A stretch of DNA of 64,000 bases, taken from NCBI GenBank assembly GCA_963710105.1, contig CAVPYV010000001.1, forward strand, positions 2,454,485 to 2,518,484. The letters run 5' to 3'. The first letter of the stretch is position 1. Each line of letters opens with the position of its first letter. Source of the DNA: an uncultured Chloroflexia bacterium. GTDB taxonomy: Bacteria > Chloroflexota > Limnocylindria > Limnocylindrales > CSP1-4. This document shows positions 875 through 56,662 of the stretch, piece by piece. The notes under the pieces are model-generated. The model was not told where the DNA came from. It saw only the letters and a list, made by a program, of their open reading frames with translations, and ran no database searches. The position numbers and the translations under genes are program-made.

Positions 875-3457
875 ATGAGCGCGAGCGGCTGGTTGGCGAT
901 CGGGGCGGTCATCGCGGCGCTCGCGTCGCCCGGCCTCGGATCGCCGGTCGTCGCGTTGACTGCGGCGCGTCGTCGCCGGAGCCGCGGCGCTCGGTCGCGC
1001 CCGGAGCGCCGGGCGAGGCGTCGCGTCGCGCCCGGTTCGGGACCGCGATCGCGATCGCGGCGGGCGCTCTCGTCGTCGCCCTTCGCCTGCTCGGCGAGCC
1101 GCACGGCGTCCCGGCGGACCCTTCCGACGCGGCCGCGGGGCTGCCGGCGGGTCGCGGGCCGTGGACCGCGGTCGTCGAGGCCCGCGGGTCGGACCGCGAC
1201 GGCCAGCAGGTGGCGACCCTCTCGATTCGCCCACCCAGCGACGTGCCGGCCCCCGCCTCGGCCGGATGGTCGGTCGCCGCCACCCTTCCCCGCTATCCGG
1301 AGATCGAGCCGGGCCTCGCGGTCACGGTCGACGGAGCGGTCGAGCCGCCGCCGGACGGGCCGTACGGCGACTACCTCCAGCGGACCGGGGTCGCCGGCAC
1401 GCTCGCGATCGCGGACACTTCGGATCGACGGCGCGGTCACGGGGCCGGGCGCAGCCCTCGAGCGCCTCCGCCGCGGCGCCGGGGATGCGCTGGCCGCCGC
1501 GATCCCGGAGCCGGAGGCGGGACTCGCGGCGGGAATCGTCGTCGGGCTCCGCGACCGGGTCGACCGCGACCTCGCCGCGGACTTCACGACCGTCGGGGCG
1601 AGCCACGTCGTGGCGATCTCCGGCTGGAACATCGCGATCGTGGCGGCCACCGTCGCGGCGCTCGCCGGTCGCCTCGGCCGGCGTCGGCGATCCGTGATCC
1701 TGGCGATCGCGATCGTGGCCTACGTCCTCTTCGCCGGCGCGTCGCCGTCGGTCGTCCGCGCCGCGGCGATGGCCGGCGTGGTCCTCCTCGCCCGCGAGAG
1801 CGGGCGCGCGGGCCGGGCGGCGGCCGCGCTCGGCTGGGCGGCGGCGATCCTGCTCGCGGTCGAGCCCGGGCTCGTCCTCGACGCCGGGCTTCCAGCTGTC
1901 GACGCTGGCGACGGCCGGCATCCTCGCCTGGGCGAACCGGATCGACGACCGGCTGCGGTCGGTCGCCGGCGGGCGGGTGCCGGGCTGGCTGGCCGAGTCG
2001 CTCGGCGTGTCCCTCGCCGCCCAGGCCGCCACGCTGCCGGTGGTCCTCGCGACCTTCGGCCGGCTCGCCCTGATCTCGCCGGCGATCAACCTCGCGATCG
2101 TCCCGCTCGTCGCCCCGGCGATGGCCGCGGCGATGGTGGCCCTCGCCGGCGGGGCGCTGGCCGTGCTCGGCGGGCCGTCGATCGTCGCCACGGTCCTCGG
2201 GCTGCCGGCCTGGGCGCTGCTGACCGCGATGTGCACGATCGTCCGCGCCGGCGCAGCGCTCCCGATCGCGAGCGTCACGCTCGGGCCGCCGTGGACGATC
2301 GTCGCGGCGGTGGCGGTCGTGGTCATCCCGGCCGCGGTCGTCGTCGCGCGCCGTCGCCGGCGGCGATCGACCGGGCGGGAACGCGGAGCCGTGGCGGGCG
2401 CCATCATCGAGCCGCTTCCCGCGGCCGCCGTCGACCCGAAGCCGACGCGCGGCGAGCCGTCGGACGCCGCTCGTCCCGGGTCGGCTCGCCGCCCTCGCCC
2501 TGGCGGTCGCGGTCGGCGCGCTCGGGATGGCCGCCGCCCACCGCACCGACGGCACGACCCGGATCACGGTCCTCGACGTCGGCCAGGGAGACGCGATCCT
2601 CGTCGAGGGCGGGCGCGGCGGGCGGATGCTCGTCGACGGCGGGCCGGATCCGGACCGGCTCCTCGTCGAGCTGGACCGGCGCCTGCCGCCGTGGGACCGC
2701 CGGATCGACGTCCTCGTCCTGACCCACCCCCACGAGGATCATGTCGCGGGCCTGCCGCTCCTCCTCGAGCGCTACCGCGTCGGGCGGATCTACGAGACCG
2801 GGATGCGCGGGCCCGGCCCGGGCTACGCCGCGTTCGACCGGATCCTCGGCGAGGCGGGCGCGCCGCCGGACGGGATCCTCGCCACGGGCGCCCGGATCGC
2901 CCTCGACGACATCCGGTTCCGCGTCCTGTGGCCGGATCCCGGCCGCGTCCCGCGCGAGCCGCCCGATGCGGGCCGCGGGATCAACGACGTCTCGATCGTG
3001 CTCCTCGGCGAGGTCGCCGGACGGCGATTCCTGCTGACCGGCGACGTCGAGGACGACGTCGACCCGCTCCTCGCCGAAGCGCGGCCTGCCGCCGATCGAC
3101 ATCCTCAAGGTCGCCCACCACGGCAGCGCGACGGCCTCGACGCCGGCCTTCCTCGACGCCGTCCGGCCGCGGGTCGCGATCGTCTCGGCCGGCGCCGGCA
3201 ACCCGTACGGCCACCCGGCGCGCTCGACGATCGACCGCCTCGCGGCTACCGGCGCCCGCGTCCTGCGGACCGACACCGACGGCTCGGTGGCGGTCACGAT
3301 CGACCCGGCGGGCGCGATCGCCGTGGCCGAGAGCGGCGCCCGGCGCGTCGCCGCCGTGCCGCTCGGCCCAGCCGTGGCGACGGCCACCGGCCGGGGCGCC
3401 CTGGGCCTGGCGGCATCGTCCGCCGCATTCAGCTGCGGGATACCATCGAGCGGATGA
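875..3457 (+). CDS. comEC: DNA internalisation competence protein ComEC/Rec2, made of DUF4131, the competence TM domain and a metallo-beta-lactamase domain. It is split over at least 5 frame changes (frame 2 then 1 near 960-1020; 1 to 2 near 1435; 2 to 0 near 1980; 0 to 1 near 2525; 1 to 2 near 3085).
   Basis: Motifs recovered in successive frames: GDYLQRTGVAGTLAI (DUF4131), TTVGASHVVAISGWNIAIV (competence domain), ITVLDVGQGDAILVE...LVLTHPHEDHVAGL (MBL domain) and LPPIDILKVAHHGSATAS (MBL C-terminus). The stop TGA at 3455-3457 overlaps the holA ATG. Confidence 0.8.
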
Positions 3458-4524
3458 CCACCGCACGCGTCGCCTACTTCTTCGGCGACGACGACCTCAC
3501 GATCGACCGCGCGGTCGCCCGCTTCGGGGCCGAGGTCGCGGCCGGCGGCGAGCCGCTCGAGCGCTGGGACCTTCGCGGCAACCGGAACCTGGCGGCGGCC
3601 CAGATCGGCGAGCTCCACGGCCGGGTCGCGACGCCGACGATGTTCGGGGGCGGGACGCTCGCGGTCGTGACGAACGCCGGGGCGCTCGCCGTCCGGGCCG
3701 AGGACCGCGATGCGCTGCTCGCCCTCGTCCCCCTCGTCGCCGATGGCAACGCCCTCGCGATCGTCGAGCAGAGCCAGAGCGGCGCGAAATCCGCGGGCCA
3801 GGCAAAGCTCGCCGAGGCGATCCGCGGTGCCGGCGGCCGGGTGACCGGGATCCAGTCCCCGAAGGAGGGGGCGCTCGCCGCCTGGATCGAGAGCGAAGGC
3901 CGCGACCGGGGGGTCCGGCTCGGCGTCGGCGCGGCGAAGGAGCTCGCGACGCGGATCGGCGGCTTCGTCCGCGAGGGCGACGCGGAGCGGCGCGATCAGA
4001 CGCGCCTGGCGGCGATGGAGCTCGACAAGCTCGCCCTGTACCGGCCCGACTCGATCGTCTCGCCCGACGACGTCCGGGCGCTCGTCGCCGAGGCGCTGCC
4101 CGGGAGCGCCTGGGCCCTCGCCGACGCCGTGGCCGAGCGGGACGCGTCACGGGCGCTCCACCTACTCGACGCCCTCGCCGAGTCGATGCCCGAGCCGGTC
4201 CTCGTCGTCGTCCTTCATCGCCGGATCCGGGAGCTGCTCGAGCTCCAGGACCGGATGCCGGGAGCGAAGAGCCTCGCCGCCGCGGCGCTGGCGATGGGGA
4301 TCCGGAGCGAGTTCCGGGCACGGCGTCTCGCCGAGCAGGCCCGCCTCTGGCGCGGCGACGAGCTGATCGCCGCGATCGATGGGCTGCTCGAGCTCGATGC
4401 GGTCGTCAAGGGTGCGCCGGGGCGCGGCGGTGGCGACGCCCATCACCGTCTGGCGTTCGCCCTCTGGATCGGCGACCACGTGGCGCGGGGTCGGTCACCG
4501 GTAACGACGAGCCCGCGGGCCTGA
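3454..4524 (+). CDS. holA: DNA polymerase III delta subunit (HolA). The last 11 codons differ from the downstream duplicate copy.
   Basis: ATG at 3454 (ATGA overlap with the comEC stop). The translation MTTARVAYFFGDDDL...LWIGD has the size and synteny typical of holA after comEA-comEC. The 3' 506 bp are repeated at 7139-7644. Confidence 0.8.
   Translation: MTTARVAYFFGDDDLTIDRAVARFGAEVAAGGEPLERWDLRGNRNLAAAQIGELHGRVATPTMFGGGTLAVVTNAGALAVRAEDRDALLALVPLVADGNALAIVEQSQSGAKSAGQAKLAEAIRGAGGRVTGIQSPKEGALAAWIESEGRDRGVRLGVGAAKELATRIGGFVREGDAERRDQTRLAAMELDKLALYRPDSIVSPDDVRALVAEALPGSAWALADAVAERDASRALHLLDALAESMPEPVLVVVLHRRIRELLELQDRMPGAKSLAAAALAMGIRSEFRARRLAEQARLWRGDELIAAIDGLLELDAVVKGAPGRGGGDAHHRLAFALWIGDHVARGRSPVTTSPRA
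3985..4490. repeat. Left copy of a 506-bp direct repeat of the holA 3' end (4131-4490 are 100% identical to 7285-7644; 3985-4130 are about 80% identical).
   Basis: Identical six-frame ORF translations appear at a constant offset of 3154 bp (4162..4479 vs 7316..7633; 3497..4321 vs 7125..7475). A manual alignment confirms this. Confidence 0.85.
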
Positions 4525-5111
4525 TCGGCGGCCCGGAGAGCGACCTCTGATGGGGCCCGATGTCCTGTCAGCGGTCCTGATGTCCTGATACTCGCCGCCA
4601 GTCCGCTTCCCTGGAGGGTTAGGTGGGCGAGATGGGGGCCATCCACGAGAGGGCACGACTAGCCACGACGCCGCTGGAGCGAAACTGACCGACGGAGGTC
4701 GATCTGCTCCGGCCGAGCAGGGCGAGCGCCCGGCGGTCCCACGTAGGCTAGCCAACGTTCTGTAGGTATGTCCTCTTGGCGTGGCAATTGGCGCATACGA
4801 CATCCCATTTGGCGATCTCGGCGAGAAGCACCTGGAGTTCGCTGGTACAGTGCCCTCAGCGATCCCTCAGGCGCGCCCCGGGATTCGACCTTCGATCGCG
4901 CCCACGAGCAGGCGCGGCGGAGTTGGCTGACAAAGGAGCGCCCGCGGATAGTTCGCCCTGTGACGGATGAACCGTTCCGATTCTTTACGGCTGCTCGGCG
5001 TTCTCCCGGAAGAGGCCTCACCCGGGATTAGCTTGCCAGTGGCGCTTCCGCTTGTCATCGCCCACTCCGGATCGACGGGTTCTCCAAGCCAGTCTCGGAG
5101 GGCGGGTGCGG

Positions 5112-5660
5112 TTACTCGCTCGGTGGTTGCCAGATCGCCAGACGCGTAACCGTGGCGCACACGTTGTATCGGCCCCAACGGCCGGAATTCACATGGTCAG
5201 TAATGTCCTCGTGCGCGGTTGCGAAGAGCGCACCATCGGCATCCAGAACCTTGGTGAAGTCGGGGTCGAAGACCGCAACGAAGGCATGCGGCCACAGAAT
5301 CGGTAGCACGAACTCCGTACTGAGTAACGCGACCACCTCGCCGTCGCTCTCCGCTACCAAGACGAACCTGGTCGTCGTCTCCACGCCCGCGCAACTGTCG
5401 GCTGGGAACATCTCCGGCAAGGGAACTAGGGTGGCCCCGCCCACGATGGACGCCGTCGGCGTCGCGGTCTCGCCCACGGAAGCTACAGGGGTCGATTCAG
5501 ATGCAGGCGAACCCGATGCCGACGGCAGAGTTGAGGCATTGGGCGGTGCAACACTTGGCGTAACCGAATTGCTCACACACGCCCACAGCATCGAGCCGAG
5601 AACAAGTGCGGCGATCGCGGCGCGGCGCGTGCCTAGCAGGGAGAAGTCTGCACGTAGCAT
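5112..5660 (-). CDS. Secreted/lipoprotein-like hypothetical protein. Its ATG overlaps the 3' end of the S1 protease gene; it is a possible cognate partner or inhibitor.
   Basis: MLRADFSLLGTRRAAIAALVLGSMLWAC (signal peptide with a Cys), then a Ser/Thr/Pro-rich linker and a roughly 110-aa globular domain. The ATG at 5658-5660 overlaps protease codons by about 25 nt. Confidence 0.5.
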   Translation of the reverse strand: MLRADFSLLGTRRAAIAALVLGSMLWACVSNSVTPSVAPPNASTLPSASGSPASESTPVASVGETATPTASIVGGATLVPLPEMFPADSCAGVETTTRFVLVAESDGEVVALLSTEFVLPILWPHAFVAVFDPDFTKVLDADGALFATAHEDITDHVNSGRWGRYNVCATVTRLAIWQPPSE

Positions 5661-6976
5661 GGCCGCCAGCCGTACGCGTCGCGGATCTCGGGCATCGTCC
5701 CGTAGAACATGAAGGCGTGACCTTTGTCGTTCACCACGCTGGAACTGATGATCCCAACGGCCGCGAAGTTCCAAAATACCGGCCCGCCACTGTCGCCGTG
5801 GTCAACTGCGGTGTCCATCTGCCATTGGTGGTGGAGGTGGTAGTTGTCTGTCGTCAATACGTCGCGGTTCAGGGCGGTGATAACGCCGCAGTCGTAGCCG
5901 GTGCTTTGGCCCGCTCGGCAAATCGTCGTGTTCTGCGTCTGCGATGACTCGGCCATGGTGCTTGTCATGTGGCGCAGATCGCCGGTGCTCTGGCCAAACA
6001 TGTAGTTCGCGGGCACCTGAGTTGTGAATTGTCCGCTTCCCACCGAATACCGAACGACGCCGAAGTCGGCGTATGAACCGTCGAAGTAGTTCTCGACGAT
6101 GCCGGGGCCGTAGTACTTGCTGTTGTGGTACCAATTGCCGTTGGCAACGGACTGAAGACAGTGGCCCGCAGTCAGAAACTGGTTCGTCGAATTGCCGCTG
6201 TTCGATCGACCCATGAATCCAGATGTGCAGGTCGTGCCGCCAATTGGCCCACCGGTGCCCTGTATTGACAGCCCGCCCTTCATAGGATTCGGGCAGCTGG
6301 TTCGCGATGTGCAGGTGTCCAGCTCATCGGACGCGACGTACTCGATGCGGAGCATTGGCGACTTAGCGAGATCGGTAAAGCCCACCCCCGTTGGCACTGA
6401 ACCCACGCGAAGCTGCAACACGACGCTGTTCGATGGCTGATCGATGCCGACGGATCGGTACCCAATCTCGTAGGCCCCTGGCGCGTCGAACAGACTCGCC
6501 ACCCTGGTCTGAAAGTCGCTAAGCGTGGCCAGCGAATACGTGACCGGCTGAAAATGCACCGGCGCCCCCTTCGGGAGCAGCGCAAGCAGGTAGCCCTCGC
6601 CGAGATCGGGAGTGCCGCTGGTGGCGACCACGATCTGGCCTCCTGCAAGGTTGTCCATCCAGAGGCCCCCGAACCATGGTCGACCCTCGAGCTCCGGCAG
6701 GATGGCATCAGTGCCGTGACCGATATCCTGACGTCGGTCGAGCTCATCGGCTTCCGCGAGGGTCAGCAGTGTCCCGTAGCGATCCGTGTGCTCGCCATTG
6801 GCGACACTGTTGATCGTCGAGAGGTCGAAGGTCAAACCTTCAGAGACACGGAAATCGATCGCGCGCTGCAATACCGCCGCGGACAGGACTGGCCCGACGG
6901 CGGCAGTGCTTGTGGACGCGAGAATGCTCGCGATCGCGGCCATGGCGGCCATGACTGCCGTCTTTCGTCGGTGCAT
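5633..6976 (-). CDS. Secreted S1 (chymotrypsin-fold) serine protease of the alpha-lytic/streptogrisin type, with an N-terminal pro-region.
   Basis: Signal peptide MHRRKTAVMAAMAAIASILAS. Catalytic His motif TAGHC and Ser motif GDSGGP, with Cys pairs typical of the S1E family. A GGAGGG Shine-Dalgarno lies upstream of 6976. Confidence 0.8.
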   Translation of the reverse strand: MHRRKTAVMAAMAAIASILASTSTAAVGPVLSAAVLQRAIDFRVSEGLTFDLSTINSVANGEHTDRYGTLLTLAEADELDRRQDIGHGTDAILPELEGRPWFGGLWMDNLAGGQIVVATSGTPDLGEGYLLALLPKGAPVHFQPVTYSLATLSDFQTRVASLFDAPGAYEIGYRSVGIDQPSNSVVLQLRVGSVPTGVGFTDLAKSPMLRIEYVASDELDTCTSRTSCPNPMKGGLSIQGTGGPIGGTTCTSGFMGRSNSGNSTNQFLTAGHCLQSVANGNWYHNSKYYGPGIVENYFDGSYADFGVVRYSVGSGQFTTQVPANYMFGQSTGDLRHMTSTMAESSQTQNTTICRAGQSTGYDCGVITALNRDVLTTDNYHLHHQWQMDTAVDHGDSGGPVFWNFAAVGIISSSVVNDKGHAFMFYGTMPEIRDAYGWRPCYVQTSPC

Positions 6977-7138
6977 CGTATCCCCCTCCCACCTCGACGG
7001 CCCCTGGCGCGAAGCCCAAGCCGGCGCCAGACTCTAGACGCTAAGGGCATCCGGATGCAACTGGTGAAAGCGAACCTCCGATTGCACCCTGTTGACATCC
7101 TGGCCCCCCGCGTGAACGGCCCAATCAAGGTGATTGCC

Positions 7139-7684
7139 GAGCGTCGCGACCAGACGCGTCGCGCCTCGATGGAGCTCGACAAGCTGGCCCTATACCGGAT
7201 GGATGCCGCCGTTTCCGTCGAGGACGTCCGCGCGCTGGTCGCCGAGGCGGTGCCCGGCAACGCCTGGGCGCTGGCCGACGCCGTCGCCGAGCGGGACGCG
7301 TCACGGGCGCTCCACCTACTCGACGCCCTCGCCGAGTCGATGCCCGAGCCGGTCCTCGTCGTCGTCCTTCATCGCCGGATCCGGGAGCTGCTCGAGCTCC
7401 AGGACCGGATGCCGGGAGCGAAGAGCCTCGCCGCCGCGGCGCTGGCGATGGGGATCCGGAGCGAGTTCCGGGCACGGCGTCTCGCCGAGCAGGCCCGCCT
7501 CTGGCGCGGCGACGAGCTGATCGCCGCGATCGATGGGCTGCTCGAGCTCGATGCGGTCGTCAAGGGTGCGCCGGGGCGCGGCGGTGGCGACGCCCATCAC
7601 CGTCTGGCGTTCGCCCTCTGGATCGGCGACCACGTGGCGCGGGGCGACGCCGTCCGGGCGGCGGCCGCGCGCGCGGGCCCCTAG
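7139..7684 (+). pseudogene. holA: Displaced 3' fragment of holA (right copy of the direct repeat). It carries a divergent 5' 146 bp and an alternative, more native-looking C-terminus.
   Basis: It translates in the holA frame to RRDQTRRASMELDKLALYR...LWIGDHVARGDAVRAAAARAGP*. It has no N-terminal two-thirds and no start. Positions 7285-7644 are identical to 4131-4490. Confidence 0.7.
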
Positions 7685-7691
7685 CGGCGGG

Positions 7692-7946
7692 TCAGTCGGC
7701 CGAGCTCCACGCCTGCTCCTGGACGACGAGGTCGCTCTCGATGGCGAAGACGCAGCGGCCGTCGCGGAGGTCGAGCAGCTCGATCAGCTCCGGATCGATG
7801 TAGAGCTGGTGGCAGTCCTCGCACAGCCCGCCCGGGATCCCGAAGCACAGCCGCTCGGTCCGATCCGACATCCGGAACGTCGTGTCGAACCGGGTCGTGA
7901 TCAGGCGGCGGCTGCAGGCGGGACAGCGTTCGCGAAGGCGGGACAT
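7692..7946 (-). CDS. Small YgiT/MqsA-type zinc-ribbon domain protein (84 aa). There is no HTH domain and no adjacent toxin.
   Basis: MSRLRERCPACSRRLITTRFDTTFRMSDRTERLCFGIPGGLCEDCHQLYIDPEL gives a CPxC...CxxC zinc ribbon with the TTF/ERT pattern of the MqsA N-terminal domain. Confidence 0.6.
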   Translation of the reverse strand: MSRLRERCPACSRRLITTRFDTTFRMSDRTERLCFGIPGGLCEDCHQLYIDPELIELLDLRDGRCVFAIESDLVVQEQAWSSAD

Positions 7947-8667: not shown

Positions 8668-9351
8668 CTGACGATACAGCCGATGGGCCGAGATCACCTC
8701 GGCCACGGCAGGCGGGACGAGGCCGTCGAGCGGCTCGCCGGCCGACGCCCGACGACGGATGACCGAGGCGGAGACATCGACGCGCGGGCCGTCGAAGACG
8801 ACGATCCGGTCGGCGCGCCCGGGAAACGTTGCGGCGACCACGGCAGGATCGGGCGGCGCGTGGCCCGACCGCGGGGCGACCGCGATCCGGGCCAGGTCGA
8901 GGAGGCGCTCCGGCTCGTGCCACGACGCGAGGTCGGCGAACGACTCGGCCGACAGGATCACGGTGATGTCGGGCTCCCGTCCGGCGGCCCGCTCGATGGC
9001 CGCGAGCGCCTCGACGGTGTCGACCGTCCAGGACGGCCCGGGGCGGTCGAGCTCGATCCGGCTCGCCTCGATCCGCGGCTCGCCGGCGATCCCGGCCTCG
9101 ACCATCGCCAGCCGCACCGGACCGGGGCTGATCGGCCGGCCACGCTTGTGCGGCGGGACGGCGGCCGGGACGACGAGGACCCGCTCGAGCCCGAGCCGGT
9201 CGCGCGCAGCCCGGGCAAGGCCGAGGTGGCCGATGTGGAAGGGGTCGAACGTGCCGCCGAGGATGCCGATCGAGCCCGGCCGCACGGGCGCCGGAGCCTC
9301 GGTCGCCGGAGCCTCGGGCGTCACCGGACCTCCCAGGGCTGGGCCTCCCAT
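8668..9351 (-). CDS. nadD: Nicotinate-nucleotide adenylyltransferase NadD. The start is uncertain (9351, or the GTG near 9285). No stop codon separates it from rsfS in this frame.
   Basis: [16 protein letters not shown] (HxGH nucleotidyltransferase motif) ... ISASVIRRR. It shares a frame with rsfS through a roughly 60-aa low-complexity linker. Confidence 0.75.
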
Positions 9352-10632
9352 TCGAGCTCCGTCGCGCCGATCCGGACCAGGTCGCCCGTGGCGATCCCGG
9401 CCCGCCGCAGCTCCTCGTCGATCCCGAGCCGGGCGAGGTCGCGCTGGAAGCGCTCGGCCGATTCCTCGACGTCGAAGTTCGTCTGCGCCGCGATCCGCTC
9501 GATCCGCTTGCCGCGCACCCGGAAGACGCCGTCCTCGATCCGCTCGACGCTGAAGCCGTCGCCCATCCGCTTCGATCCGGTGGACGACGACTCCGGCCGG
9601 CTCGGGCGGCGCGCCGAGATCGTCGGCGTCGGGCAGGAGATCGGCGATCCGGTCGCGGAGCACGTCCAGCCCGAGCCCTCGACCGCCGAGATCGCCACGA
9701 CGTCGTCGCCGTCCTTCTCGCGCGCGGCCCGGAACGCCGGCCAGGCCTCGACCGCGGTCGGGCGGTCCATCTTGTTGAACGCGACGATCATCGGCTTCTC
9801 GAGCAGGGCCGGATCGTGGGCCCGGAGCTCGTCGCGGATCACGTCGTGGTCCCAGCCCGGATCGCGGCCGGAGCCGTCGACGACGTGGATCAGGATCCGC
9901 GTCCGCTCGACGTGGCGGAGGAACGCATGGCCGAGGCCCGCCCCGCTCGAGGCGCCCTCGATCAGGCCCGGCACGTCGGCGATCGTGGGCCGCCGCTCGT
10001 CGCCGGCCGGGTCGCCGGGGTCGGCGAGGTCCATGACCCCGAGGTTCGGCTCGAGCGTCGTGAACGGATAGTCGGCGATCTTCGGCGTCGCCGCGGTCAG
10101 GGCGGCGAGGAGGGTCGACTTGCCGGCGTTCGGCAGCCCGACGAGGCCGATGTCGGCGATCAGGCGGAGCTCGAGGCGGAGCCAGCGCTCCTCGCCCGGC
10201 TCGCCCTTCTGGGCGTGCTTCGGGGCCTGGTGGGTCGAGGTCTTGAAGTGGGTGTTGCCGAGGCCGCCGCGACCGCCGCGGGCGATCATCGCCGACCTGG
10301 CCGACCGCGACGAGGTCGGCGAGGAGCTCGCCAGTCTCGTCGTCGAAGATCGCGGTGCCCGGCGGGACGTCGAGGTACAGCTCGCCGCCGGCGGCTCCGT
10401 GGCGGCGCGAGCCCTCGCCGCGGCCACCGGACGTGGCCTTGAAGTGGTGCTTGTAGCGGAAGTCGCGGAGGGTCGTCTGGCCGGCGTCGACCCGGACGTG
10501 GATCGAGCCGCCGCGGCCACCGTCGCCGCCGTCGGGGCCGCCCCGCGGCACGTGGGCCTCGCGGCGGAACGTGGCCGCCCCGTCACCGCCCGCGCCGGCC
10601 TTGACGAAGATCTTGACGCGGTCGAGAAACAT
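9321..10632 (-). CDS. obg: GTPase Obg/CgtA (Obg fold, GTPase domain and OCT domain). It spans three frame changes.
   Basis: N-terminus [47 protein letters not shown]-domain [14 protein letters not shown]...[10 protein letters not shown]...NKMD...ISAVEG. C-terminal OCT domain [21 protein letters not shown]...GDLVRIG. The stop is at 9321-9323. Confidence 0.85.
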
Positions 10633-10792
10633 CAGCGCGATTGTCGCATCCGGGGGTTCCGCCGACGGTCACCGGCGACCGGCGATGCCTCACGGCAGCG
10701 CGACCGGCCCGGCGATGCTCCGTGGCGACCGGCCCGCGCCGCGTCGTCGGCCCTCCTCCGAGCCGACGGCGCGTCGCCGGGCGGTCAGGCGA

Positions 10793-11951
10793 TCAGAGAT
10801 AGATCAGCGGATTGACCCGGGTCCCGCCGTCCCAGACCATCCCCCGCCAGACCTCGAAGTGGAGGTGCGGGCCCGTGGCGTTGCCGGTCATCCCGACCCG
10901 GCCGACCTGCTGGCCGCGCCCGACGTGCTGGCCGCGCCCGACCGACACGGCGCTCATGTGGTTGTACGTGGTGTACAGCCCGGAGCCGTGGGCGATCCAG
11001 ACCTGGTAGCCGCCGCCGTTGTTCTTCCAGCCGGCGAAGATCACGGTTCCGGCCGCGGCGGCCATGACCCGCGTCCCCTGGTCGGCGGCGATGTCGATCG
11101 CGTAGTGGCCGTAGTGGAAGTACTGGCTGATGTAGCCGCCGGCGACCGGCCAGGCGAACTTGCCGCCGGAGTACGCGGCGGGCGGCCGGGTCGAGCCGCT
11201 CGAGCCGCCCGATGACGAGCGCGGCGCGGGCTTGCTGACGGGCGCCTTCGTCGGCTTGGGCGTGGCGATCTCGGACGATCGGGCCCCGGGGATCGTCAGG
11301 GTCTGGCCGACGACGAGGACCGCGTCGGTCAGCTGGTTCGTGTCGATGATGTCGGTCGGGTCGATCCGGTACCGCGCGGCCAGCAATTCGAGGGTGTCGC
11401 TCGTCCCGACAGTGACGACGACGCCGCTGACCGGCGGGATCGTGAGCGTCTGGCCGACCTTGAGGTCGTCCTTGTTCTTCAGGTTGTTCGCCCACCACAC
11501 GGTCATCATCGACACGTGGAACTTCGAGGCGATCCCGGTCAGGGTGTCGCCGGAGCGAACGCGGTACGTGCGCAGGAGGTCCGAGCCGTCGGCGACCGTC
11601 GTGTCGACCGACACGGGCTTGAGGAGCGTCCCGTCGGCGCTGAACGGCCCGTCGACCGAGACCCGGTCGTCGGGTGCGACGTTCGAGGCGCCCACCGTCA
11701 GGTCCGATGCCGAGAGGTCCGTCCCGCCGCCGGCGGCGAAGCGATCGTCGATCCCGCCCTGGGGCGCGTTGTCGAGCCCGGAGACGGCACCGCCGAGGGC
11801 GATCCGCGGCTCGCTGCCGGCGCCGCTCGTGTTGCCGGTCGGGCCGGCCGCCGCGGGACGAGCCGAGGTTGCTGAGAGCGACCGCGACGGCGACGAGGCC
11901 GACGGCCGTGATCGACACGAGGCGCTCACCCGACGGGCGGGGGCGGCTCAT
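10793..11951 (-). CDS. LysM-domain (x2) M23 family peptidoglycan endopeptidase with an N-terminal signal anchor. There is one frame change near 11870.
   Basis: Two LysM repeats (YRVRSGDTLTGIASKF..., YRIDPTDIIDTNQL...). The M23 signature is HYAIDIAADQGTRVMAAAAGTV...GYQVWIAHG...YNHMS...GRVGMTGNATGPHLHFEV. The TM helix LVSITAVGLVAVAVAL is in the upstream frame. Confidence 0.8.
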
Positions 11952-21712: not shown

Positions 21713-24108
21713 TCACTCGAGGGCGGACTCGGTCAGGTGGTGCGGCCGCCGGACGAGCTCGATCGGCGGACCGTCCAGGAGCAGCTCGGCGGTCAGCGGC
21801 AGGTCGACGGAGGAGGCGCCGACCTGCAGGCTGACGCGACCGGGCTCGACGACGCGGCGGTAGATCCGCGCCGACGTAGGAGAACTGCTCGGTGGAGAGG
21901 CGGAAGATGACCGTCTGGCATTCCCCGGCCGCCAGACGCAGCCGGCGGAAGCCCGCGCAGCTCGCGCACCGGGCGGGCGACCGTCGCCTCCTCGTCGCGG
22001 ACGTAGAGCTGCACGACCTCGTCGCCGGCCCGGCGCCCGGTGTTGGTGACGTCGACCCGGACCGCGACCTCGCCGCCGGTCGTCGCGAGGACGTCCGGTC
22101 GAGCGCGGAGGTCGGTCGATCGCGAACGTCGTGTACGAGCGGCCGAAGCCGAACGGCCAGAGCGGCGCGACCGGGCCGTCGACATAGTCGCCCTTCGGGT
22201 TGCGAGCGGCCGCCCGTCGGGTGGTGGCGGTAGGTCAGCGGCACCTGGCCCACGGGGCGCGGCATCGTCACGGGCAGCTTGCCGCTGGGGTTCACGTCGC
22301 CCGCTGAGCGACGTCGGCGATCGCCGCCGGGCCGGCGTCGCCGGGCACCCAGGCGAGCAGGATCGCGGCGCAACGGTCGGCGGCCCACTCGAGCGCCAGC
22401 GGCCGACCGCTGACGACCACCAGCACGACCGGCGTGCCGGTGGCGACGACGCGCCTCGAGCAGCTCCTGCTGCCGGCCGAGCAGCCCGAGCCCGGCGCGA
22501 TCGCGGAACTCGCCGGTCGTCGATTCGGCGGTCAGGCCCGACCGCTCGCCGAGGACCACGATCGCGACGTCCGCGTCGCGGCGACCGTCGACGGCCGCGG
22601 CGATGCTCCGCGTCGGTGCCGTCGTGATGCCCGCTGCCGCGGGCGTGGACGACCTCGGCCCGGCAGCGCGCGCGCAGCGCATCGAGGATCGTCCGCCTGC
22701 CGGTCAGCTCGTCTCCGAGCGCCACATGCCTCGCCCGTCGCCGATGACCGCCGAGCGCGTCGCCGCCGCGGCGCATCTCGCTGGAGCGTCTCGATGTGGA
22801 CCAGGTGGCTGTAGTCACCGAGCAGGTCGCGGGCGCTGTCGGCGATCGGTCCGACGACCGCGACGCGGCGCGGTCCGGCGCGAGCGGCAGCACGCCATCG
22901 TTCTCGAGCAGGACGAGCGAGCGCTCGGCGAGATCGCGCGCGGCCGCCGCCTCCGTCCGCGGCGAGGCGCTCCAGGGCCGCGCTCGATCGGGACGTCGAC
23001 GTACGGGCGCTCGAAGAGGCCGAGGCGGAACTTCATGCGCAGCACCCGGCCGACGGCCGCATCGAGCAGTGCCTCGTCGACCCGCCCGTCGTCGATGGCG
23101 CTCGCGAGCGGGCGCACCGAAGGCGACGGTCCGCGGCAGCTCGGGGTCGACGCCCGGCCTCGAGCGCCATGCGGCGCGGCCTCGCCGAGGTCCGCGGTCA
23201 GGCGGTGGGCGGTCACGAGCATCTCGATGCCCATGTAGTCCGAGGCGACGATGCCGTCGAAGCCCCACTCGTCGCGCAGGATCGCGGTCGAGCAGCTCGC
23301 GCGAGGCGTGGCAGGGCACGCCGTCGACGTCGCAGTAGGCGGGCATGACGCTGGCGATCCCGCCGTCGACGGACGGCCGCCTCGAACGGGAAGAGCTGCT
23401 CGTCGCGCAGCTCGCGCGGACCGAGGTGGGCCGGCGCCTGGTTGAGCCCGCCCTCCGCGAGCCCGTGGCCGACCAGGTGCTTGGCGGTCGCGAGGACGCC
23501 GTCCGCGCGGTCCGGCGCCCTGGAGCGCCTCGACATAGGCGAAGCCGATCTCGGCCGCCAGGTACGGATCCTCGCCGTACGTCTCCTCGATCCGCCCCCA
23601 GCGCGGGTCGCGCGCGATGTCGAGCACGGGCGCCAGCGCCTGGCGGGCGCCGGTCAGGCAGCATCCGCCGCCGGATCGTCGCCGGCCATCGCCGCCGACG
23701 AGCGTCCGGGATCGAACGTGGCCGCCGCGCCGATGGACTGCTGGAAGCACGGCGCGCCCCAGGCGAGCAGCGCCGTGGAGGCGACTCCTCGTGGATGATC
23801 GCCGGGATGCCCAGGCGGGTCTCCTCGACCAGGTAGCGCTGGATCGCGTTCGCCATCTCGGCCACCTCGGCGGCGCGCAGATTGGTCGACCCGGCGAGGC
23901 GGGTGATCTGGCCGATCCCGTCGCGCCACCAGCGCGCGTCAGCCGGTCGCGGTCGAGGCCGTCCTCGCTCGACGACCTCGAACGCCCAGACCGACCCCAG
24001 CTGGGCGAGCTTCTCGGCCCGCGTCATCCGGCCGAGGAGGTCGGCGACCCGCGCCTCGATCGGGCAGTGCCGGGTCGCGATAGGGCGCTCAGCGGCGCGT
24101 CGCATCAT
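21713..24108 (-). CDS. Glycoside hydrolase family 3 (BglX-like beta-glucosidase/beta-xylosidase). It is split over several frame changes.
   Basis: N-terminus RVADLLGRMTRAEKLAQL. LAPVLDIARDPRWGRIEETYGEDPYL and GFDGIVASDYMGI are in other frames. The C-terminus VEPGRVSLQVGASSVDLPLTAELLLDGPPIELVRRPHHLTESALE* ends at the stop 21713-21715. Confidence 0.7.
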
Positions 24109-41037: not shown

Positions 41038-41759
41038 GCGACGCCGCCTACCAGCCGCAGTACCGCCAGATCGAGCGATCCCTCCGGGAGCGGATCGCCG
41101 CGCTCCGCCCGGGCGAGCGACTGCCGTCCGACTCGGACCTGTGCGCCGAGTTCGGCGTGAGCCGGATGACGGCCCGCAACGCCATGCAGCGGCTGGCGGC
41201 CGACGGCCTGATCCGGCGCGAGCCGGGCCGTGGCAGCTTCGTCGCCGAGCCGCCGGCCCACCGCCGGGCCAACCGCCTGATGACCTTCACCCAGGAGATG
41301 CTGCGGGCCGGCCGTGTCCCGAGCTCGCGACTGCTGACGCGGGTGATCCGGCCGTCGACGGCGGCCGAGGCCAGCCGCCTCGGGATCCCGTCCCGCCAGC
41401 CGATCGTGCACCTGCGCCGGGTCCGGATGGCCGACGACGAGCCGATCGCGGTCGAGTCGACGGTCCTGATCGGGGCCACCGCCGACGCGGTGATGACCGC
41501 CGACCTGGCCGGCGGCTCGCTCCACGACGCGCTCCGCCGCGGCGGCTACGCGCCGACCCGGGGAACCGGCACGATCGCCGCCGCGGCCGCGACGGCCGAG
41601 GAGGCGCGCCTGCTCCGGATCCGGACGGGCGACCCGCTGCTCGTCGAGCGGCGGATCGTCGTGGACGGCCACGGCCGGCCGATCGAGGCGACCGACTCGG
41701 TGTACGGGGCCGACCGCTACGCCCTCGACGTGACCTTCGAGGTCGAGGCGCGCACGTGA
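41034..41759 (+). CDS. GntR-family transcriptional regulator, HutC/UTRA subfamily.
   Basis: [40 protein letters not shown] (GntR wHTH), then a UTRA effector domain. ATGA overlap. Confidence 0.8.
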
Positions 41760-51445: not shown

Positions 51446-53122
51446 TCAGGTCACGATGAACCCGACGGCGAGCGACGCCACGGCCACGATCGCGCCGCCG
51501 GCTGACGGCCCGAGGATGGAGCGAGCTGGCGCCTCCGCGGCGGCCGCGATCCAAGCGGATCTGGCCACCACGCCAGCCACCAGCACGACGAGTCCGATGC
51601 TGAAGAGCGACAGCACGCCCAACGGGAGCAAACCGGCACCGGCCGCGGCCGCCGTGGCGATGCGCACGCGGCGGCTCCGCGTCACGGCACCGACGGCGGT
51701 CGTAATGGTCAGCGCCACGAGGAGCGCCAGGACGAACGACTGACGCGAGTCGGGCCCAGGCCAGTCACCCTGCTGCCCGAGCAGGCGAATGTAGCCGATC
51801 GTACTCCCGGCCACGTCGTGCTTGCGACCGCGTGGGACGGGCTCCTGCTCCGCGCCCCGAGAGTCCGCTCTCGGCGCTACGCCCAAGGCGCCGGCAGGTG
51901 CGTGATCGGCTCGTGGTTCGGGCGGACGTCCGGCTGGAGTCGGGTCGGCGGCGGCGACGTAGCGCGGCTCCAGCCCGAGCTCCTTGAGGACGATGTTCCG
52001 GCCCTGCGCGATGCCGGCCGCCTTGAACGACGAGATCGTCCGGTTGAACCCCTGGCGGCCGAAGCCGCAATCGCTCGACAGGATCAGCTTGTCGGCCGGG
52101 ATCACCTCGAGCGCGCGGCGGGCGCGGCCCGCCACCTTCTCCGGGAGATCGGCCTGGAGCTGGCGGTGGCTGACCACGCCGACCGCGATCTTCTTCGACA
52201 GGCTGTTCGCGTACGGCTTGAACAGGTCGATCTGGGCGAGCTCGTTCTCGGTCGCCTCGACCGTCCAGACGTCGCCCTTGAGCCGGTTCAGGTAGATGTC
52301 GATCGAGTTCTCGTACGACTCGCCGCTGTAGACCTTCTGCATGTTCGGGTTGCCCCAGCAGGTGTGGATCCAGAGCTCGACGTCATCGAGCCCCTCGACC
52401 TCGTGGTTGAACGCCTCGACCATGAAGTCGAGCAGCTCGGTCTGCTCGGGGTGGAAGCAGGCCGTGAAGTGGATCGTCGGCTCCTCGATCTGGATCACCT
52501 TCGCGCCGGCGGCGGCAAGCTGGCGGAGCTCCTTGTTCATCGCCGTCGACATGTCCCAGATGAGCTGCTTCTTGTCGTCCTGGTCGTACTCGGACGTGTG
52601 GCTGTCGAGGAAGATCGCGAGGACCTGCGACGAGCACGTCCCGAACTTCACCGGCTTGCCGGACGCCGCGCGGGCCTGGGCGATCCGCCACAGCTTGGCG
52701 TACTCGAGCGGGTTCTTCGGGTCGTGCTCGACCTTGCCGACGACGCGCGGCCAACGCCACGTCGTCTCGATCTCGTTCATCAGCGTGCCGGGCATGAAGT
52801 CGAGGAGCCCGTCGCGCGAGTCGTCGTACTGGAGCTCCTCGTGCTCGAGACCCTTCCATCGCTGGAGCGGGTAGTGATGCCACGAGCGGCCGGCGAAGTC
52901 CTCGTCGAGGTGGTAGTCGCCGTTGGTCAGGATGTCGAGCCCGGCGCGCTCCTGGTCGGCGATGACGGTGGCGTGGGCGTCGAGGAACTGCTCACGGAAG
53001 CGGACGTCGAGGAGGGCCGTATCGAGCGGCCGGCCCCACAGGCCCTGGTCGTACCAGCGCGGCCGCGGCCACGAGCCGGTGACGGTGGCGGGGAGCATCA
53101 GGTCCTTGGTGGCCGTGAGCAT
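51446..53122 (-). CDS. Second stand-alone MetE-C-terminal-like (Meth_synt_2) protein, about 390 aa. It continues in frame into a roughly 110-aa region with 3 predicted TM helices (51446-51800), which may be a separate small membrane protein that has lost its separating stop.
   Basis: ATVTGSWPRPRWY...ILTNGDYHLDEDFAGRSWHHY...VIQIEEPTIHF...IHTCWGNP. The C-terminus is LALLVALTITTAVGAV...LLPLGVLSLFSIGLVVLVAGVV. Confidence 0.65.
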   Translation of the reverse strand: MLTATKDLMLPATVTGSWPRPRWYDQGLWGRPLDTALLDVRFREQFLDAHATVIADQERAGLDILTNGDYHLDEDFAGRSWHHYPLQRWKGLEHEELQYDDSRDGLLDFMPGTLMNEIETTWRWPRVVGKVEHDPKNPLEYAKLWRIAQARAASGKPVKFGTCSSQVLAIFLDSHTSEYDQDDKKQLIWDMSTAMNKELRQLAAAGAKVIQIEEPTIHFTACFHPEQTELLDFMVEAFNHEVEGLDDVELWIHTCWGNPNMQKVYSGESYENSIDIYLNRLKGDVWTVEATENELAQIDLFKPYANSLSKKIAVGVVSHRQLQADLPEKVAGRARRALEVIPADKLILSSDCGFGRQGFNRTISSFKAAGIAQGRNIVLKELGLEPRYVAAADPTPAGRPPEPRADHAPAGALGVAPRADSRGAEQEPVPRGRKHDVAGSTIGYIRLLGQQGDWPGPDSRQSFVLALLVALTITTAVGAVTRSRRVRIATAAAAGAGLLPLGVLSLFSIGLVVLVAGVVARSAWIAAAAEAPARSILGPSAGGAIVAVASLAVGFIVT

Positions 53123-53128
53123 CGGGCG

Positions 53129-54010
53129 TCACCTCGTGATCGGCAATTCGGTCGAACTCGATCCTACGGGTTCGGGCACCCGGTGGCCCGACTGCTCCAT
53201 CACGTGGCCGTGCCCGTCGTCGAACCTGACTCGCATCGTCCAGCCGTCCCGATCGACCTGCCAACGGATCGTCTGGACGATGTCGCCGTCCTTGAGGTCC
53301 GTCTCCTCGATCGTCCGCTCATCGATCGCCCGGACGGACACGCTGGTCACGCGCGGATCGCCGACATACGGCGCCGGTTTTCCGTCGAGGGGCGCGCTGA
53401 ACGACCGGCCGAGCCGGTCCGACATCGAGAGGGCGCCGTCCTCGATCGCATAGACGGTGTCCTCGTCGTGGTCGACGAGATCCATCGCGACGACCTTCCA
53501 GCGGCCCGAGACGAGGTGGGCGTCCGCCTCCGGGGCGCCCACGCGGATGGCCGACGTGGCGAACATGACGGGCCGGCGGGCCGTGTCGGGGCCGACGAGT
53601 GGGGCGCGGACCGGCACCAGGACGCCGTCGAGCGGCATGGCCGCAGGCCACGTCTCGATCCGGGTCTGGCCATCGGCCGAAACCGTCGTCGTCGACTCGT
53701 AGACCACAGCTCCGTCGCGACGGCCGACCTGGCGCACGGTGTACGAGTCAACGACGATGACCGCGACGGTGTCGAAGCGCGGATGGTCGCCGACGGCATG
53801 GTCGAGCTCGTCGGCGGGAACTCGATACGGCGGGCGGCAGGAGAAGCACTCGTAGATCCCGTCGGCGAGGGAGGCCCGGTCCGGAGGCTGGTCGGGCCCG
53901 GGCGGTCCGTACTCGGGTCGCCACGTTCCGTCGAAGGCGCGCTTCAGCTTCGACAGGACGGCCGGCGCCGGCGTTGGGCCATCACTCGCCGGGGTCCGTC
54001 CGCTGGTCAT
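53129..54010 (-). CDS. Hypothetical protein with an internal tandem beta-rich duplication. It lies 6 bp downstream of the MetE-like gene.
   Basis: I recognised no family. Codon usage is consistent with coding. Confidence 0.45.
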   Translation of the reverse strand: MTSGRTPASDGPTPAPAVLSKLKRAFDGTWRPEYGPPGPDQPPDRASLADGIYECFSCRPPYRVPADELDHAVGDHPRFDTVAVIVVDSYTVRQVGRRDGAVVYESTTTVSADGQTRIETWPAAMPLDGVLVPVRAPLVGPDTARRPVMFATSAIRVGAPEADAHLVSGRWKVVAMDLVDHDEDTVYAIEDGALSMSDRLGRSFSAPLDGKPAPYVGDPRVTSVSVRAIDERTIEETDLKDGDIVQTIRWQVDRDGWTMRVRFDDGHGHVMEQSGHRVPEPVGSSSTELPITR

Positions 54011-54143
54011 CCGCGCAGCCTAGACCGGCCGAGCGCAGTCCGGACGCCATCTCCAAGAACGTCTGGCCATTCGGCGAGCTTGCCGAACGCATCGTTGACT
54101 TCGCCACCGGCGGTGCGAGACTGAAACAGGGGCCACGTGATCC

Positions 54144-54596
54144 ATGCACCGGAGGCGGTCCTTGCCTCGACGAATCGTGATCGTCGTGTTTGCGACGGTT
54201 GCATTTGCGATCGCCGTCCTCGGCGCGAGTCAGCTGGACCGAAGCGCCCACTCCGCTTTGCCGCTCGGCTTGGCCGTCGAGGATCCCGCTCCTCCGCTGC
54301 CATCCGGCGCTTCCTGGGCGTGTGCCCAGGCGCGCGCCGGGCCGGTTCGGGTGGCCCGCAATGGGCAGCTGCTTGTGTTCACGTCCCTCGACGGCAAGAG
54401 CACCGCCGATCTGATCTGGCCACGCGGATTCACCGCGCGACTTCTCGATGGACGGGCTGAGTTGGTGGCCCGCAACGGATCGGTGGTCGCGGAGGAAGGT
54501 GATGTTCTCGACGACTTGGGGGGCGGCGTCGGCGCGACGGGCAACGCGTTCCACGTCTGCTCTGTCGCCGGGAAGGGATACGACCCGGTTCCGTAG
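54144..54596 (+). CDS. Hypothetical membrane-anchored or secreted protein (150 aa).
   Basis: N-terminal hydrophobic segment IVIVVFATVAFAIAVLGA. It lies in the lower-GC block. Confidence 0.4.
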   Translation: MHRRRSLPRRIVIVVFATVAFAIAVLGASQLDRSAHSALPLGLAVEDPAPPLPSGASWACAQARAGPVRVARNGQLLVFTSLDGKSTADLIWPRGFTARLLDGRAELVARNGSVVAEEGDVLDDLGGGVGATGNAFHVCSVAGKGYDPVP

Positions 54597-54735
54597 CTAA
54601 CGGTTGACCAGGCTGCGACAGGTGCGGCCGGTCTCGGGCGATCGCCAGCACGTCGCCACGCGCAACGTGTCCGCCAATGACAGCTGGCGGCGTTGGTCCC
54701 GCATCCGCGACGGGCGAGCCCGATATGGTGGTGGC

Positions 54736-55212
54736 ATGCCAATGGTCGAGGTGGAGATCAAGTCCGTCGTTCGCGCACGAGACCGATTGGTGTTGAGCGC
54801 CGAGTCGTGGCGAGAGAACTCTCAGGAGTACTTCGAAGGGCCTGACGTCCGTGTCACGTTGACGTGTGATGCGATGACCGCGGAGTCCGTTCTACCTGCG
54901 TATGTCGCAGATGCCGAGCGCCTTGGCCCGTTGTTTCACGAGATCGATCGCGACTGGCGCGGATGGACCGGCGAGAAGGCCGCGGGTGTTCCGGGGCGAG
55001 ACTGGCTCTCCGCCACGGCGACGCATGACGGTCGTGGCCACGTGGCACTTGCTGTGTCGCTTGCCGCCGGATGGCCAGATGCTGCAGCCTGGTCGGTGCG
55101 CGGCACGTTGTTGATCGACGTTGGTTCGGCGGCCTCGATCGCAAGAGCATTGGACGATTTGTTGTTTGTCATCTGGCCGCCGGAGCACCGATGGCGAACC
55201 CCGACTGCCTGA
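54736..55212 (+). CDS. Hypothetical protein (about 158 aa).
   Basis: ORF with balanced composition in the lower-GC block. The start is chosen at MPMVEVEIK. Confidence 0.35.
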   Translation: MPMVEVEIKSVVRARDRLVLSAESWRENSQEYFEGPDVRVTLTCDAMTAESVLPAYVADAERLGPLFHEIDRDWRGWTGEKAAGVPGRDWLSATATHDGRGHVALAVSLAAGWPDAAAWSVRGTLLIDVGSAASIARALDDLLFVIWPPEHRWRTPTA

Positions 55213-55341
55213 GTTCAGCGCTCCTGCCTATTGGCGCTGATGTCAGCGAGCGCCCGCCAATGTCACCCGAAAGGGTGCGAGCCCTCGACTTCATCCCGAA
55301 CCTGGACTACTGCGATCCGCGGCGCGCCGGTCAGGGCGAGA

Positions 55342-56049
55342 TCACGGGGCCAGGGCGGGAAGGGTCTCGGTAGGGTTCGTCCTCGGGGTTGGCGGGACCT
55401 CTGTCGTGTCGCCCCTACCGTACGGACCAGGCTCGAACATTGTTGGCGTGCCCCCGATGACGGCACAAACAGGGTCCTCCGCCCAGTAGCCTCGGCCAAG
55501 GTCGATCCTGCCGCTGAACACCACGAGCCAGACAGCCGCATCCGTCTGTAGCTCCGGTTCGACCCCGCGAATTGGGACGTATCGGACCGCGTCCCTGGCC
55601 GATGCGACCAGGCCCATCTGAGCAACGTGCTCAATGCCAATGCGAGCGACCCCGCACGACTGTAATGCGGCAGCCGCCTCGGGAGTCGGATTGGATCGCG
55701 AGACCGCCTGAATTGCCATCGGGGCGTCGCCCGCAGCGGAGGGCGGTACAGACGTTGGAGGGATGCGAGTGTCGGATCCCTCGGTCTGAGGGGGCGCGCT
55801 GACGAGAATCGCCGTCGATGGCTCGGGAGGAACGTTGGTGTCAGGCATCTTCGACGCGCCCGGCGGCGGCGTCACCAAGCAGAACGGTGACTGAGCCGGC
55901 GATTGGCCGGGCGCGCACGGGACCGTGGGGACGGCGCCGCCGTGCGTGACCACCTTGGCGGGCTGACTCCCGAGGGCCACTACAGCCGCTGCGAGCCCGA
56001 CGACGACGACGAGCGCCAAGACGGCGACTCGAACGCTAACTAGCCGCAT
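55342..56049 (-). CDS. Hypothetical membrane-anchored protein with a Pro-rich linker and a C-terminal globular domain.
   Basis: MRLVSVRVAVLALVVVVGLAAAVVALGS signal anchor. GAGGGGG Shine-Dalgarno 7 nt upstream of the ATG at 56049. Confidence 0.45.
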   Translation of the reverse strand: MRLVSVRVAVLALVVVVGLAAAVVALGSQPAKVVTHGGAVPTVPCAPGQSPAQSPFCLVTPPPGASKMPDTNVPPEPSTAILVSAPPQTEGSDTRIPPTSVPPSAAGDAPMAIQAVSRSNPTPEAAAALQSCGVARIGIEHVAQMGLVASARDAVRYVPIRGVEPELQTDAAVWLVVFSGRIDLGRGYWAEDPVCAVIGGTPTMFEPGPYGRGDTTEVPPTPRTNPTETLPALAP

Positions 56050-56615: not shown

Positions 56616-56662
56616 GTCCGCAGCATAGGGATGCCTTGGTCAGTCAGCGTGCTGTCACGCGA

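Follow-up and report, generated by a model that had tools for sequence, protein, structure and literature searches.

In Escherichia coli, linear DNA with one end homologous to the 3' part of lacZ is for the most part closed into a circle again and then inserted through a single crossover that depends on recA (Amarir-Bouhram et al. 2011, PMC3240628). Such Campbell-type insertion-duplication left 109-950 bp of the lacZ end duplicated in 56 of 60 clones, and true homology-facilitated illegitimate recombination (HFIR) was found in 4/60 (PMC3240628). It is to HFIR that the strings of orphan 3' ends at type VI secretion system (T6SS) effector, Rhs and contact-dependent inhibition (CDI) loci have been attributed (Kirchberger et al. 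2017, PMC5361080). Cis-mobilizable elements (CIMEs), finally, by definition retain attL and attR and have lost their integration genes (Guedon et al. 2017, PMC5704250). Here we consider a small foreign islet at the 3' end of holA, the gene for the delta subunit of DNA polymerase III, in an uncultured Chloroflexia bacterium of the Limnocylindrales (assembly GCA_963710105.1, contig CAVPYV010000001.1, positions 2,454,485 to 2,518,484). The window, to which all coordinates refer, is this whole stretch of 64,000 nucleotides. In our opinion the islet entered holA by homologous, RecA-type recombination without the intervention of a site-specific recombinase, a reading to which we assign a probability of roughly 0.55.

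The islet lies between two direct, in-register copies of a 506-bp segment that are offset by 3154 bp (3985-4490 versus 7139-7644). The two copies are 100% identical over their last 359 bp (4132-4490 and 7286-7644). A first-pass annotation, made from the sequence without database searches, had put this stretch at 360 bp; the block itself is real, but position 4131 is G and position 7285 is C, which shortens it by one nucleotide. Upstream of the block, the identity of about 80% that the same annotation had given is also what we find (117/146, or 80.1%, for 3985-4130 against 7139-7284), and beyond the upstream end of the repeat the identity of the copies is 24-32%, which is background. At an identity of 80%, a run of 359 matches has a probability of about 1e-35. 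The enclosed DNA (4491-7138, 2648 bp, no strand) has a GC content of about 0.62-0.65, and its lower GC, already remarked upon in the earlier work, is evident at either scale of analysis: 0.58-0.66 in 300-nt windows and 0.62 in 1-kb windows, with flanks at 0.72-0.80. It forms the GC minimum of the entire 64-kb window. Neither a tRNA or tmRNA scan nor a scan with the Rfam families found anything at the junctions between repeat and insert.

The left copy closes an intact holA gene (3454-4524, forward strand, 356 aa), which had been recognized as such and which scores 124.7 bits against NCBIfam TIGR01128 (cutoff 80); it has syntenic orthologues in 26 related loci and ends in ...ARGRSPVTTSPRA*, the asterisk marking the stop codon. 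The right copy is a 3' fragment of holA with a different tail, ending in ...ARGDAVRAAAARAGP*. For the purposes of discussion each copy can be divided into an arm, the identical core and a tail, all of them on the forward strand. In the left copy the 147-bp arm lies at 3985-4131, the core, which encodes the HolA C-terminal domain up to ...LWIGDHVARG, at 4132-4490, and the tail (RSPVTTSPRA*) at 4491-4524. In the right copy the arm lies at 7139-7285, the core at 7286-7644, and the tail (DAVRAAAARAGP*), which is attached to this non-functional 3' fragment, at 7645-7684. In the protein database, the open reading frame (ORF) of the right fragment (window 7056-7684) is present as P0009 (209 aa). The full-length left holA was absent both from the protein-database matches and from an exact look-up, perhaps an effect of annotation in the source record.

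The genes on either side of the islet assign the genome to Ca. Limnocylindrales (Chloroflexota). We have compared the locus with 26 loci of this group, comprising 22 species-representative loci along with L026 and L031-L033. All 26 share the gene order comEA, comEC, holA, a convergent Zn-ribbon gene of 84 aa, nadD/rsfS, obg and an M23 peptidase gene. The conserved comEA-comEC-holA operon that had been proposed is thus found throughout the relatives, and so is the predicted empty site, with holA followed by the Zn-ribbon gene in each of them; a second piece of holA, or any of the cargo, was found in 0/26. In the window, the Zn-ribbon gene, the usual downstream neighbour of holA, lies beyond the right copy (7692-7946, reverse strand, convergent) and is native, with about 96% identity to L026. 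From comEC through the N-terminal part of holA to the left arm, L026 and the window share 92-93% identity, and in L026 the stop codons of holA and the Zn-ribbon gene are a mere 7 nt apart. The 84-aa Zn-ribbon gene was called at the corresponding position in both L026 and L031-L033. Since the site is empty in the relatives, including the close relative L026, the insertion is derived and fairly recent. Three short holA fragments in the database (P0099, P0084 and P0043) were considered as further duplications and rejected; they are frameshift-split or contig-end genes at ordinary empty sites.

The spot between holA and the Zn-ribbon gene is nevertheless not always empty of other DNA. In L015 it holds 1.6 kb (9915-11557, GC 0.66) of unrelated ORFs, in L006 0.95 kb (9345-10292) with a membrane-anchored ORF, and in L003 and L011 about 0.4 kb, in every case without duplication of holA. 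This spot may be a recurrent hot spot for accessory genes. Moreover, because these other lineages carry accessory DNA there without a duplication, a donor in which a holA tail is natively followed by cargo is plausible. One of the intergenic ORFs of L015 looks SnoaL/NTF2-like by eye.

An indication of how the islet arrived comes from the comparison of the two copies with the relatives. The left arm is 92.5% identical to both L026 and L002, whereas the right arm is only 78% identical to L026 and 77-84% identical to all of the relatives. At the 30 arm sites that differ between the copies, L026 agrees with the left copy at 25, with the right copy at 4 and with neither at the remaining one (binomial p=1e-4). 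On the far side of the core, L026 agrees with the right copy. The right tail has nucleotide matches in L002, L003 and L016 and is similar to the tails of L001 and L002, which are the nearest relatives; for the left tail no relative gave a nucleotide match. The PVTTS motif of the left tail does occur in other lineages (PAPVTTSRR* in L004 and L006, RRPVTTS* in P0017; compare PAPVTSR* in L016), but the nucleotide homology with the PVTTS-type tails of L004 and L016 is unconvincing, and it is the peptide motif alone that they share. Across the order, the holA tails that follow ...LWIGDHV are hypervariable in both length and sequence; that of L003 (about 11040-11125) has a tandem peptide repeat, RDRPAEAS, three times over.

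Judged by these sequence markers, the left arm and the right tail are native, while the right arm and the left tail are foreign. The two copies are thus reciprocal chimeras of the sort left by Campbell-type insertion-duplication, the left being recipient on its left and donor on its right and the right being donor on its left and recipient on its right. The functional left holA is a chimera of a native 5' part and arm, the shared core and a foreign-type C-terminal tail; the right copy, by now a dead 3' fragment, consists of a donor arm, the core and a native tail. The description of the right copy as a displaced 3' fragment accordingly holds, in the sense of native DNA, for its tail, and possibly for its core, but not for its 147-bp arm. 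A single donor holA 3' segment, from another Limnocylindrales lineage and circularly permuted via the cargo, would seem to have had the right arm and the left tail as its two ends.

The divergence of the right arm has the character of a functional gene. Compared with the left arm it has dN=0.125 and dS=0.68 (dN/dS 0.18), 19/30 of the differences fall at codon position 3 (chi-square p=0.002), and it carries the family-consensus residues RRAS, EAVPG and VSVEDV; it is the left arm that is the unusual one. In view of the low dN/dS, the codon-position bias and the consensus residues, we take the right arm to be a selected xenologue rather than a product of decay. This bears directly on the possibility that the 3' end of holA was first duplicated locally in tandem, with a later insertion of cargo and decay of one copy. 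The 506-bp direct, in-register repeat is what such a duplication would give. The purifying selection and consensus residues of the right arm are not those of neutral decay, the two tails are unrelated in sequence, a divergence of 20% directly beside one of 0% cannot come from decay alone, and no relative has a duplication. We regard this possibility as scarcely credible. Its older form, an ancestral tandem duplication shared with relatives that carry the protease pair here, is excluded by the same dN/dS and consensus residues and by the finding that no relative has that pair at this locus.

The markers also speak to a displacement of the Rhs/T6SS kind, in which linear DNA, anchored in the upstream part of holA, would have been joined illegitimately at 7138|7139, orphaning the native 3' end. 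The homology to holA does begin abruptly at 7139, as at an illegitimate joint, the invariant GGFVREGDA motif of every holA being absent just upstream, and the competence genes comEA and comEC are present. Moreover, as in the T6SS, Rhs and CDI orphan arrays (PMC5361080), a new 3' end has arrived with cargo and an older 3' fragment lies downstream in the same orientation. Such an event, though, predicts a wholly native right copy and a foreign left arm, and the markers of L026 show the opposite, both in the 25:4 count and in the identities of the arms (92.5% on the left, 78% on the right). In those arrays the orphan is wholly native; here the orphan's arm is foreign and the native arm has stayed with the functional copy. 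It may be added that holA, unlike the targets of those systems, is not a polymorphic toxin gene, and that in E. coli few of the clones were due to true HFIR (4/60, PMC3240628). A displacement of this kind seems very unlikely to us. A peptide just upstream of 7139, LAPRVNG, was examined as a possible further remnant of holA; its similarity is weak, the invariant motif is missing, and we have treated it as a chance resemblance. An HMM (hidden Markov model) scan found no further holA remnants in the insert.

With respect to the core, both of its limits coincide with a change in the pattern of homology. The identical block terminates exactly where the holA homology among the relatives terminates, at the start of the hypervariable tail, and it starts within 4 nt of a jump in the divergence of the left copy from L026. 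There are 9 mismatches between these two in 3985-4127 (6%), 20 in 4128-4201 (27%) and 39 in 4202-4490 (13.5%), and the jump is significant both against the arm (Fisher p=0.002) and against all of the upstream holA (5e-6). The core as a whole is 86.6% identical to L026, compared to about 93% upstream. Because L026 diverges precisely where the copies become identical, the crossovers would seem to have occurred at the edges of the identical block and not inside it. This suggests that both cores are of donor type and that the foreign DNA runs uninterrupted from about 4128 to 7644, the crossovers having taken place within two conserved stretches, ALADAVAER and LWIGDHV. Limits of this sort are what the ends of a crossover or conversion tract would be expected to show. 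Whichever its origin, the 359-bp block is, from its limits and its identity, best read as a recombination or conversion tract rather than as an att core. In a comparison of holA at 3454-4490 with L026 at 843-1879 the divergence is blocky throughout, with 2.5%, 14%, 5% and 13% in successive stretches; such a mosaic implies that homologous exchange is common in holA.

How could homologous recombination have produced this arrangement? The incoming DNA would have carried about 540 bp of a holA 3' end (arm, core and tail) from another Limnocylindrales lineage, followed by the cargo. Its simplest source would be a chromosomal fragment of a donor that natively has the cargo downstream of its own holA, and the order of its parts would have been circularly permuted when it recombined. 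A circle, such as a fragment closed on itself by ligation, could have entered by one Campbell-type crossover, accompanied by a gap-repair or co-conversion tract of 359 bp. Alternatively, the DNA was longer than unit length, or came from a pre-duplicated donor island, in which case the native core would have been replaced by means of two crossovers, in ALADAVAER and in LWIGDHV. In both cases, the expected left product is a working holA made of the native 5' part and arm, the core and the donor tail, and the expected right product a dead 3' fragment made of the donor arm, the core and the native tail. In the Campbell version, the abrupt start of homology at 7139 would be the joint at which the DNA was circularised. 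The proposal in the first-pass annotation of a circular element bearing a partial, diverged copy of the holA 3' end fares well in this respect, as the marker pattern of arms and tails fits circular or permuted DNA; and of the two routes that it had offered for the recombination, the homologous one is favoured over the site-specific one by the reciprocal chimeras and by the lack of a recombinase in the insert.

The resemblance to the E. coli insertion-duplications (PMC3240628) is close. In both, foreign DNA lies between two direct copies of part of a gene's 3' end (506 bp here, 109-950 bp there); one intact copy of the gene is restored, the insert has no recombinase, and the copies are reciprocal chimeras. 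The locus differs from the E. coli system (PMC3240628) in being a natural event in an uncultured member of the Chloroflexota, in that the homologous segment appears to come from a diverged lineage (80% identity in the arm), and in the identical tract of 359 bp, which implies an added gap repair or conversion or else a pre-duplicated donor.

Several points weigh against RecA-type insertion. A plain single crossover predicts differences between the copies on both sides of the crossover point, and over 359 bp there are none. To account for the identical block, a further event has to be inferred, be it gap repair, gene conversion or a pre-duplicated donor. RecA recombination is inefficient across an arm of only 80% identity. 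L026, the sole close relative, is itself atypical in 4128-4201, where it is the window that matches the family consensus; with one mosaic close relative, both readings of the core are left, and it may be either native or of donor type. Finally, a donor genome, a free circle or a second carrier was not found among 5.8 billion proteins, the GTDB species representatives, IMG/VR and one JGI metagenome scan. A search with the putative donor-type holA 3' end (right arm, core and left tail) matched only the right-fragment ORF of the source itself and revealed no carrier of either the right junction or the left tail, the metagenome scan with a 26-mer of the core gave only a chance match in an unrelated gene, and the IMG/VR scans with the right fragment and with the protease of the cargo gave no matches.

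The insert had been described as retaining no integrase, and indeed no integrase, transposase or recombinase domain was detected in any ORF or frame of 4491-7138. It could nonetheless be the remnant of a tyrosine- or serine-integrase element, CIME-like, that inserted at the holA 3' terminus and supplied a substitute for it; its genes for integration and transfer would later have been lost, and its repeats partly homogenised by conversion. It is classically by direct repeats taking in the 3' end of a housekeeping gene, which itself stays intact, that such elements are recognised, and the insert is both low in GC and contains a relic of selfish DNA, the HNH fragment discussed below. It thus shares with CIME remnants (PMC5704250) its low-GC accessory cargo and its lack of an integrase. 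It differs from integrase islands, integrative and mobilizable elements and CIMEs (PMC5704250) in that a 506-bp repeat with a perfect block of 359 bp, far longer than the known att cores, takes the place of a short core, and the conversion step would still be required; in that foreign homology, superfluous for an integrase, reaches 147 bp upstream of the identical block; and in the insert's size of just 2.65 kb. No integrase trace is left in any frame, neither the 26 loci nor IMG/VR yielded an integrase-bearing relative at this site, and no cognate element of that kind is known at holA. No other element at holA, and with it no short att core shared with functional elements, was found in the relatives, the protein database or IMG/VR. 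Site-specific recombination with an unusually long core, which the first-pass annotation had envisaged, is disfavoured on the same grounds, and by the fact that the block ends where the holA homology ends. On balance, we consider an integrase origin unlikely.

There is a precedent among phages for the replacement of a gene's 3' end. In E. coli, phage 21 and e14 supply icd with a diverged replacement 3' end and leave the native 3' end as a pseudo-fragment at the far junction. An integrase mediates these events, the inserted element is a prophage, whether complete or defective, the replacement differs from the native sequence along its whole length, and no homology is carried upstream of the crossover. 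The holA insert likewise has provided an essential housekeeping gene with a diverged replacement 3' end, but it differs from phage 21 and e14 in having 100% identity over 359 bp and in carrying homology upstream.

The cargo consists of two genes and a relic. The larger gene (5633-6976, reverse strand) encodes a protein of 447 aa with a signal peptide and a long pro-region; it had been called a secreted S1 protease and is one, more precisely an S1E protease of the streptogrisin/alpha-lytic type, as shown by matches to Pfam Trypsin (E=3.1e-6) and to the PDB entries 2sfa and 1sgd (E about 3e-7). Its best homologue in the search of 5.8 billion proteins is only 42% identical. The second gene (5112-5660, reverse strand; ATG at 5660, maximal ORF to 5774) overlaps the 3' end of the protease gene by 28 nt and encodes a putative lipoprotein. 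This identity is plausible, judging from a signal-like N-terminus with ...MLWAC and from a remote homologue in L024 in which ...IAAGC forms a canonical lipobox; searches of Pfam, NCBIfam and PHROG matched no family. In L024, an unrelated metagenome contig, the 42% identical protease is followed by a lipoprotein gene with the same short overlap, to whose product the C-terminal domain of the cargo lipoprotein is homologous; the recurrence of this pairing indicates that protease and lipoprotein form a conserved two-gene module. The contexts of the two best protease matches, L024 and L025, contain neither a holA fragment nor a recombinase. A paralogous S1 protease, 30% identical to that of the cargo, is encoded upstream of comEA in L003 (5103-6212), and this family is thus not alien to the lineage.

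The remainder of the insert beside holA is a seemingly gene-free stretch of about 590 bp with a codon-like GC periodicity. It contains a truncated, dead relic of an HNH endonuclease gene (4748-4855, reverse strand), of which the last ~31 codons and the stop remain. The relic was detected by the profiles phrog_3106 (E=4.8e-7) and phrog_2255 (E=1.3e-6), aligning solely to their C-terminal ends, and has no match in Pfam or NCBIfam. It reads ...ELQVLLAEIAKWDVVCANCHAKRTYLQNVG*, with an in-frame stop immediately upstream and a Trp at the position of an expected Cys, and upstream of it nothing more is recognisable in any frame. This relic, about 225 bp from the holA stop and convergent with holA, is the sole trace of mobility in the insert.

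In intronless homing, free-standing HNH or GIY-YIG endonuclease genes co-convert the markers that flank them. One could accordingly imagine that an HNH gene situated downstream of the donor holA cut the empty site, that repair copied the nuclease, the cargo and a stretch of holA, and that the nuclease has since decayed. The relic does lie beside the junction, convergent with holA, and an unbroken block, seemingly of donor type, whose sharp limits fall in conserved stretches would suit co-conversion. The locus departs from intronless homing in that the endonuclease ORF is not intact, its ~31 surviving codons being invisible to Pfam and NCBIfam, and in that homing alone makes no duplication. The right copy, moreover, keeps an intact native core/tail junction that would still be cleavable, and in none of the relatives was an intact HNH homologue found at this spot. 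Homing of this kind is quite improbable. We accord similarly little probability to a more elaborate version, in which the islet would be, or descend from, a recombinase-free mobile cassette that captured the 3' end of its target as its only "integration module" and spread by HNH cutting of naive holA/Zn-ribbon junctions and their repair by the host, the 359-bp block being the co-conversion tract and the hypervariable tail the evolving determinant of cleavage or immunity.

The quality of the assembly must also be taken into account. In the window, comEC (1120-3454) has at least 4 frame changes, compared to a single ORF of 916 aa in L002, and there is one break each in the essential obg (at about 10293) and in an M23/LysM peptidase gene (at about 11855). 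Since these are single ORFs in the relatives, the splits are likely to be indel errors of a long-read assembly, not real pseudogenes, and the same errors call for caution with base-level details such as the exact reading frames of the tails. A metagenome contig with this many frameshifts invites the suspicion that the islet is itself an artefact, an empty site and a separate molecule or strain variant having been threaded together through the shared 359 bp; furthermore, the junction ORF (P0009) occurs in just one contig of the public data. On the other side, a contig of 2.82 Mb with errors of the indel type indicates long reads, which span a 359-bp repeat, and at the junction between the cargo and the right arm there is no homology through which a false overlap might arise. 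As a free replicon, a circle of 3.15 kb without a replication gene is implausible, and even on this reading a piece of foreign holA joined to the cargo would have to exist. We consider a structural misjoin across the 359-bp repeat unlikely, and an origin of the whole arrangement by threading highly doubtful.

The holA islet adds one more natural case to a process already known, from an unusual target and an unstudied lineage; it reveals no new class of element or enzyme. Its interest is that of a clean, sequence-resolved example in which, if RecA-type insertion is the correct reading, accessory genes were added at the locus of an essential gene by host homologous recombination alone, with donor and recipient markers legible on both sides. 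The host is a member of Ca. Limnocylindrales, an uncultured soil lineage of very high GC content in which the mechanisms of gene transfer have hardly been studied. A practical warning can also be drawn: a low-GC insert between long direct repeats of the 3' end of a gene would ordinarily be taken for an att-flanked integrative element, and the markers here favour RecA-type insertion-duplication instead.

Two other features of the window may be mentioned. ARAGORN called a tRNA-Ala at 23613-23696 (84 nt) and a tRNA-Asp at 41615-41701 (87 nt), both of unusual length; these calls may be false or atypical, because an Rfam scan of the whole window at gathering thresholds matched nothing, not even tRNA. 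Finally, a second and milder low-GC stretch (52000-57000, 0.66-0.68), in which no recombinase was found, contains a DUF6228 protein and several ORFs without a Pfam match and lies beside a MetE-like gene.

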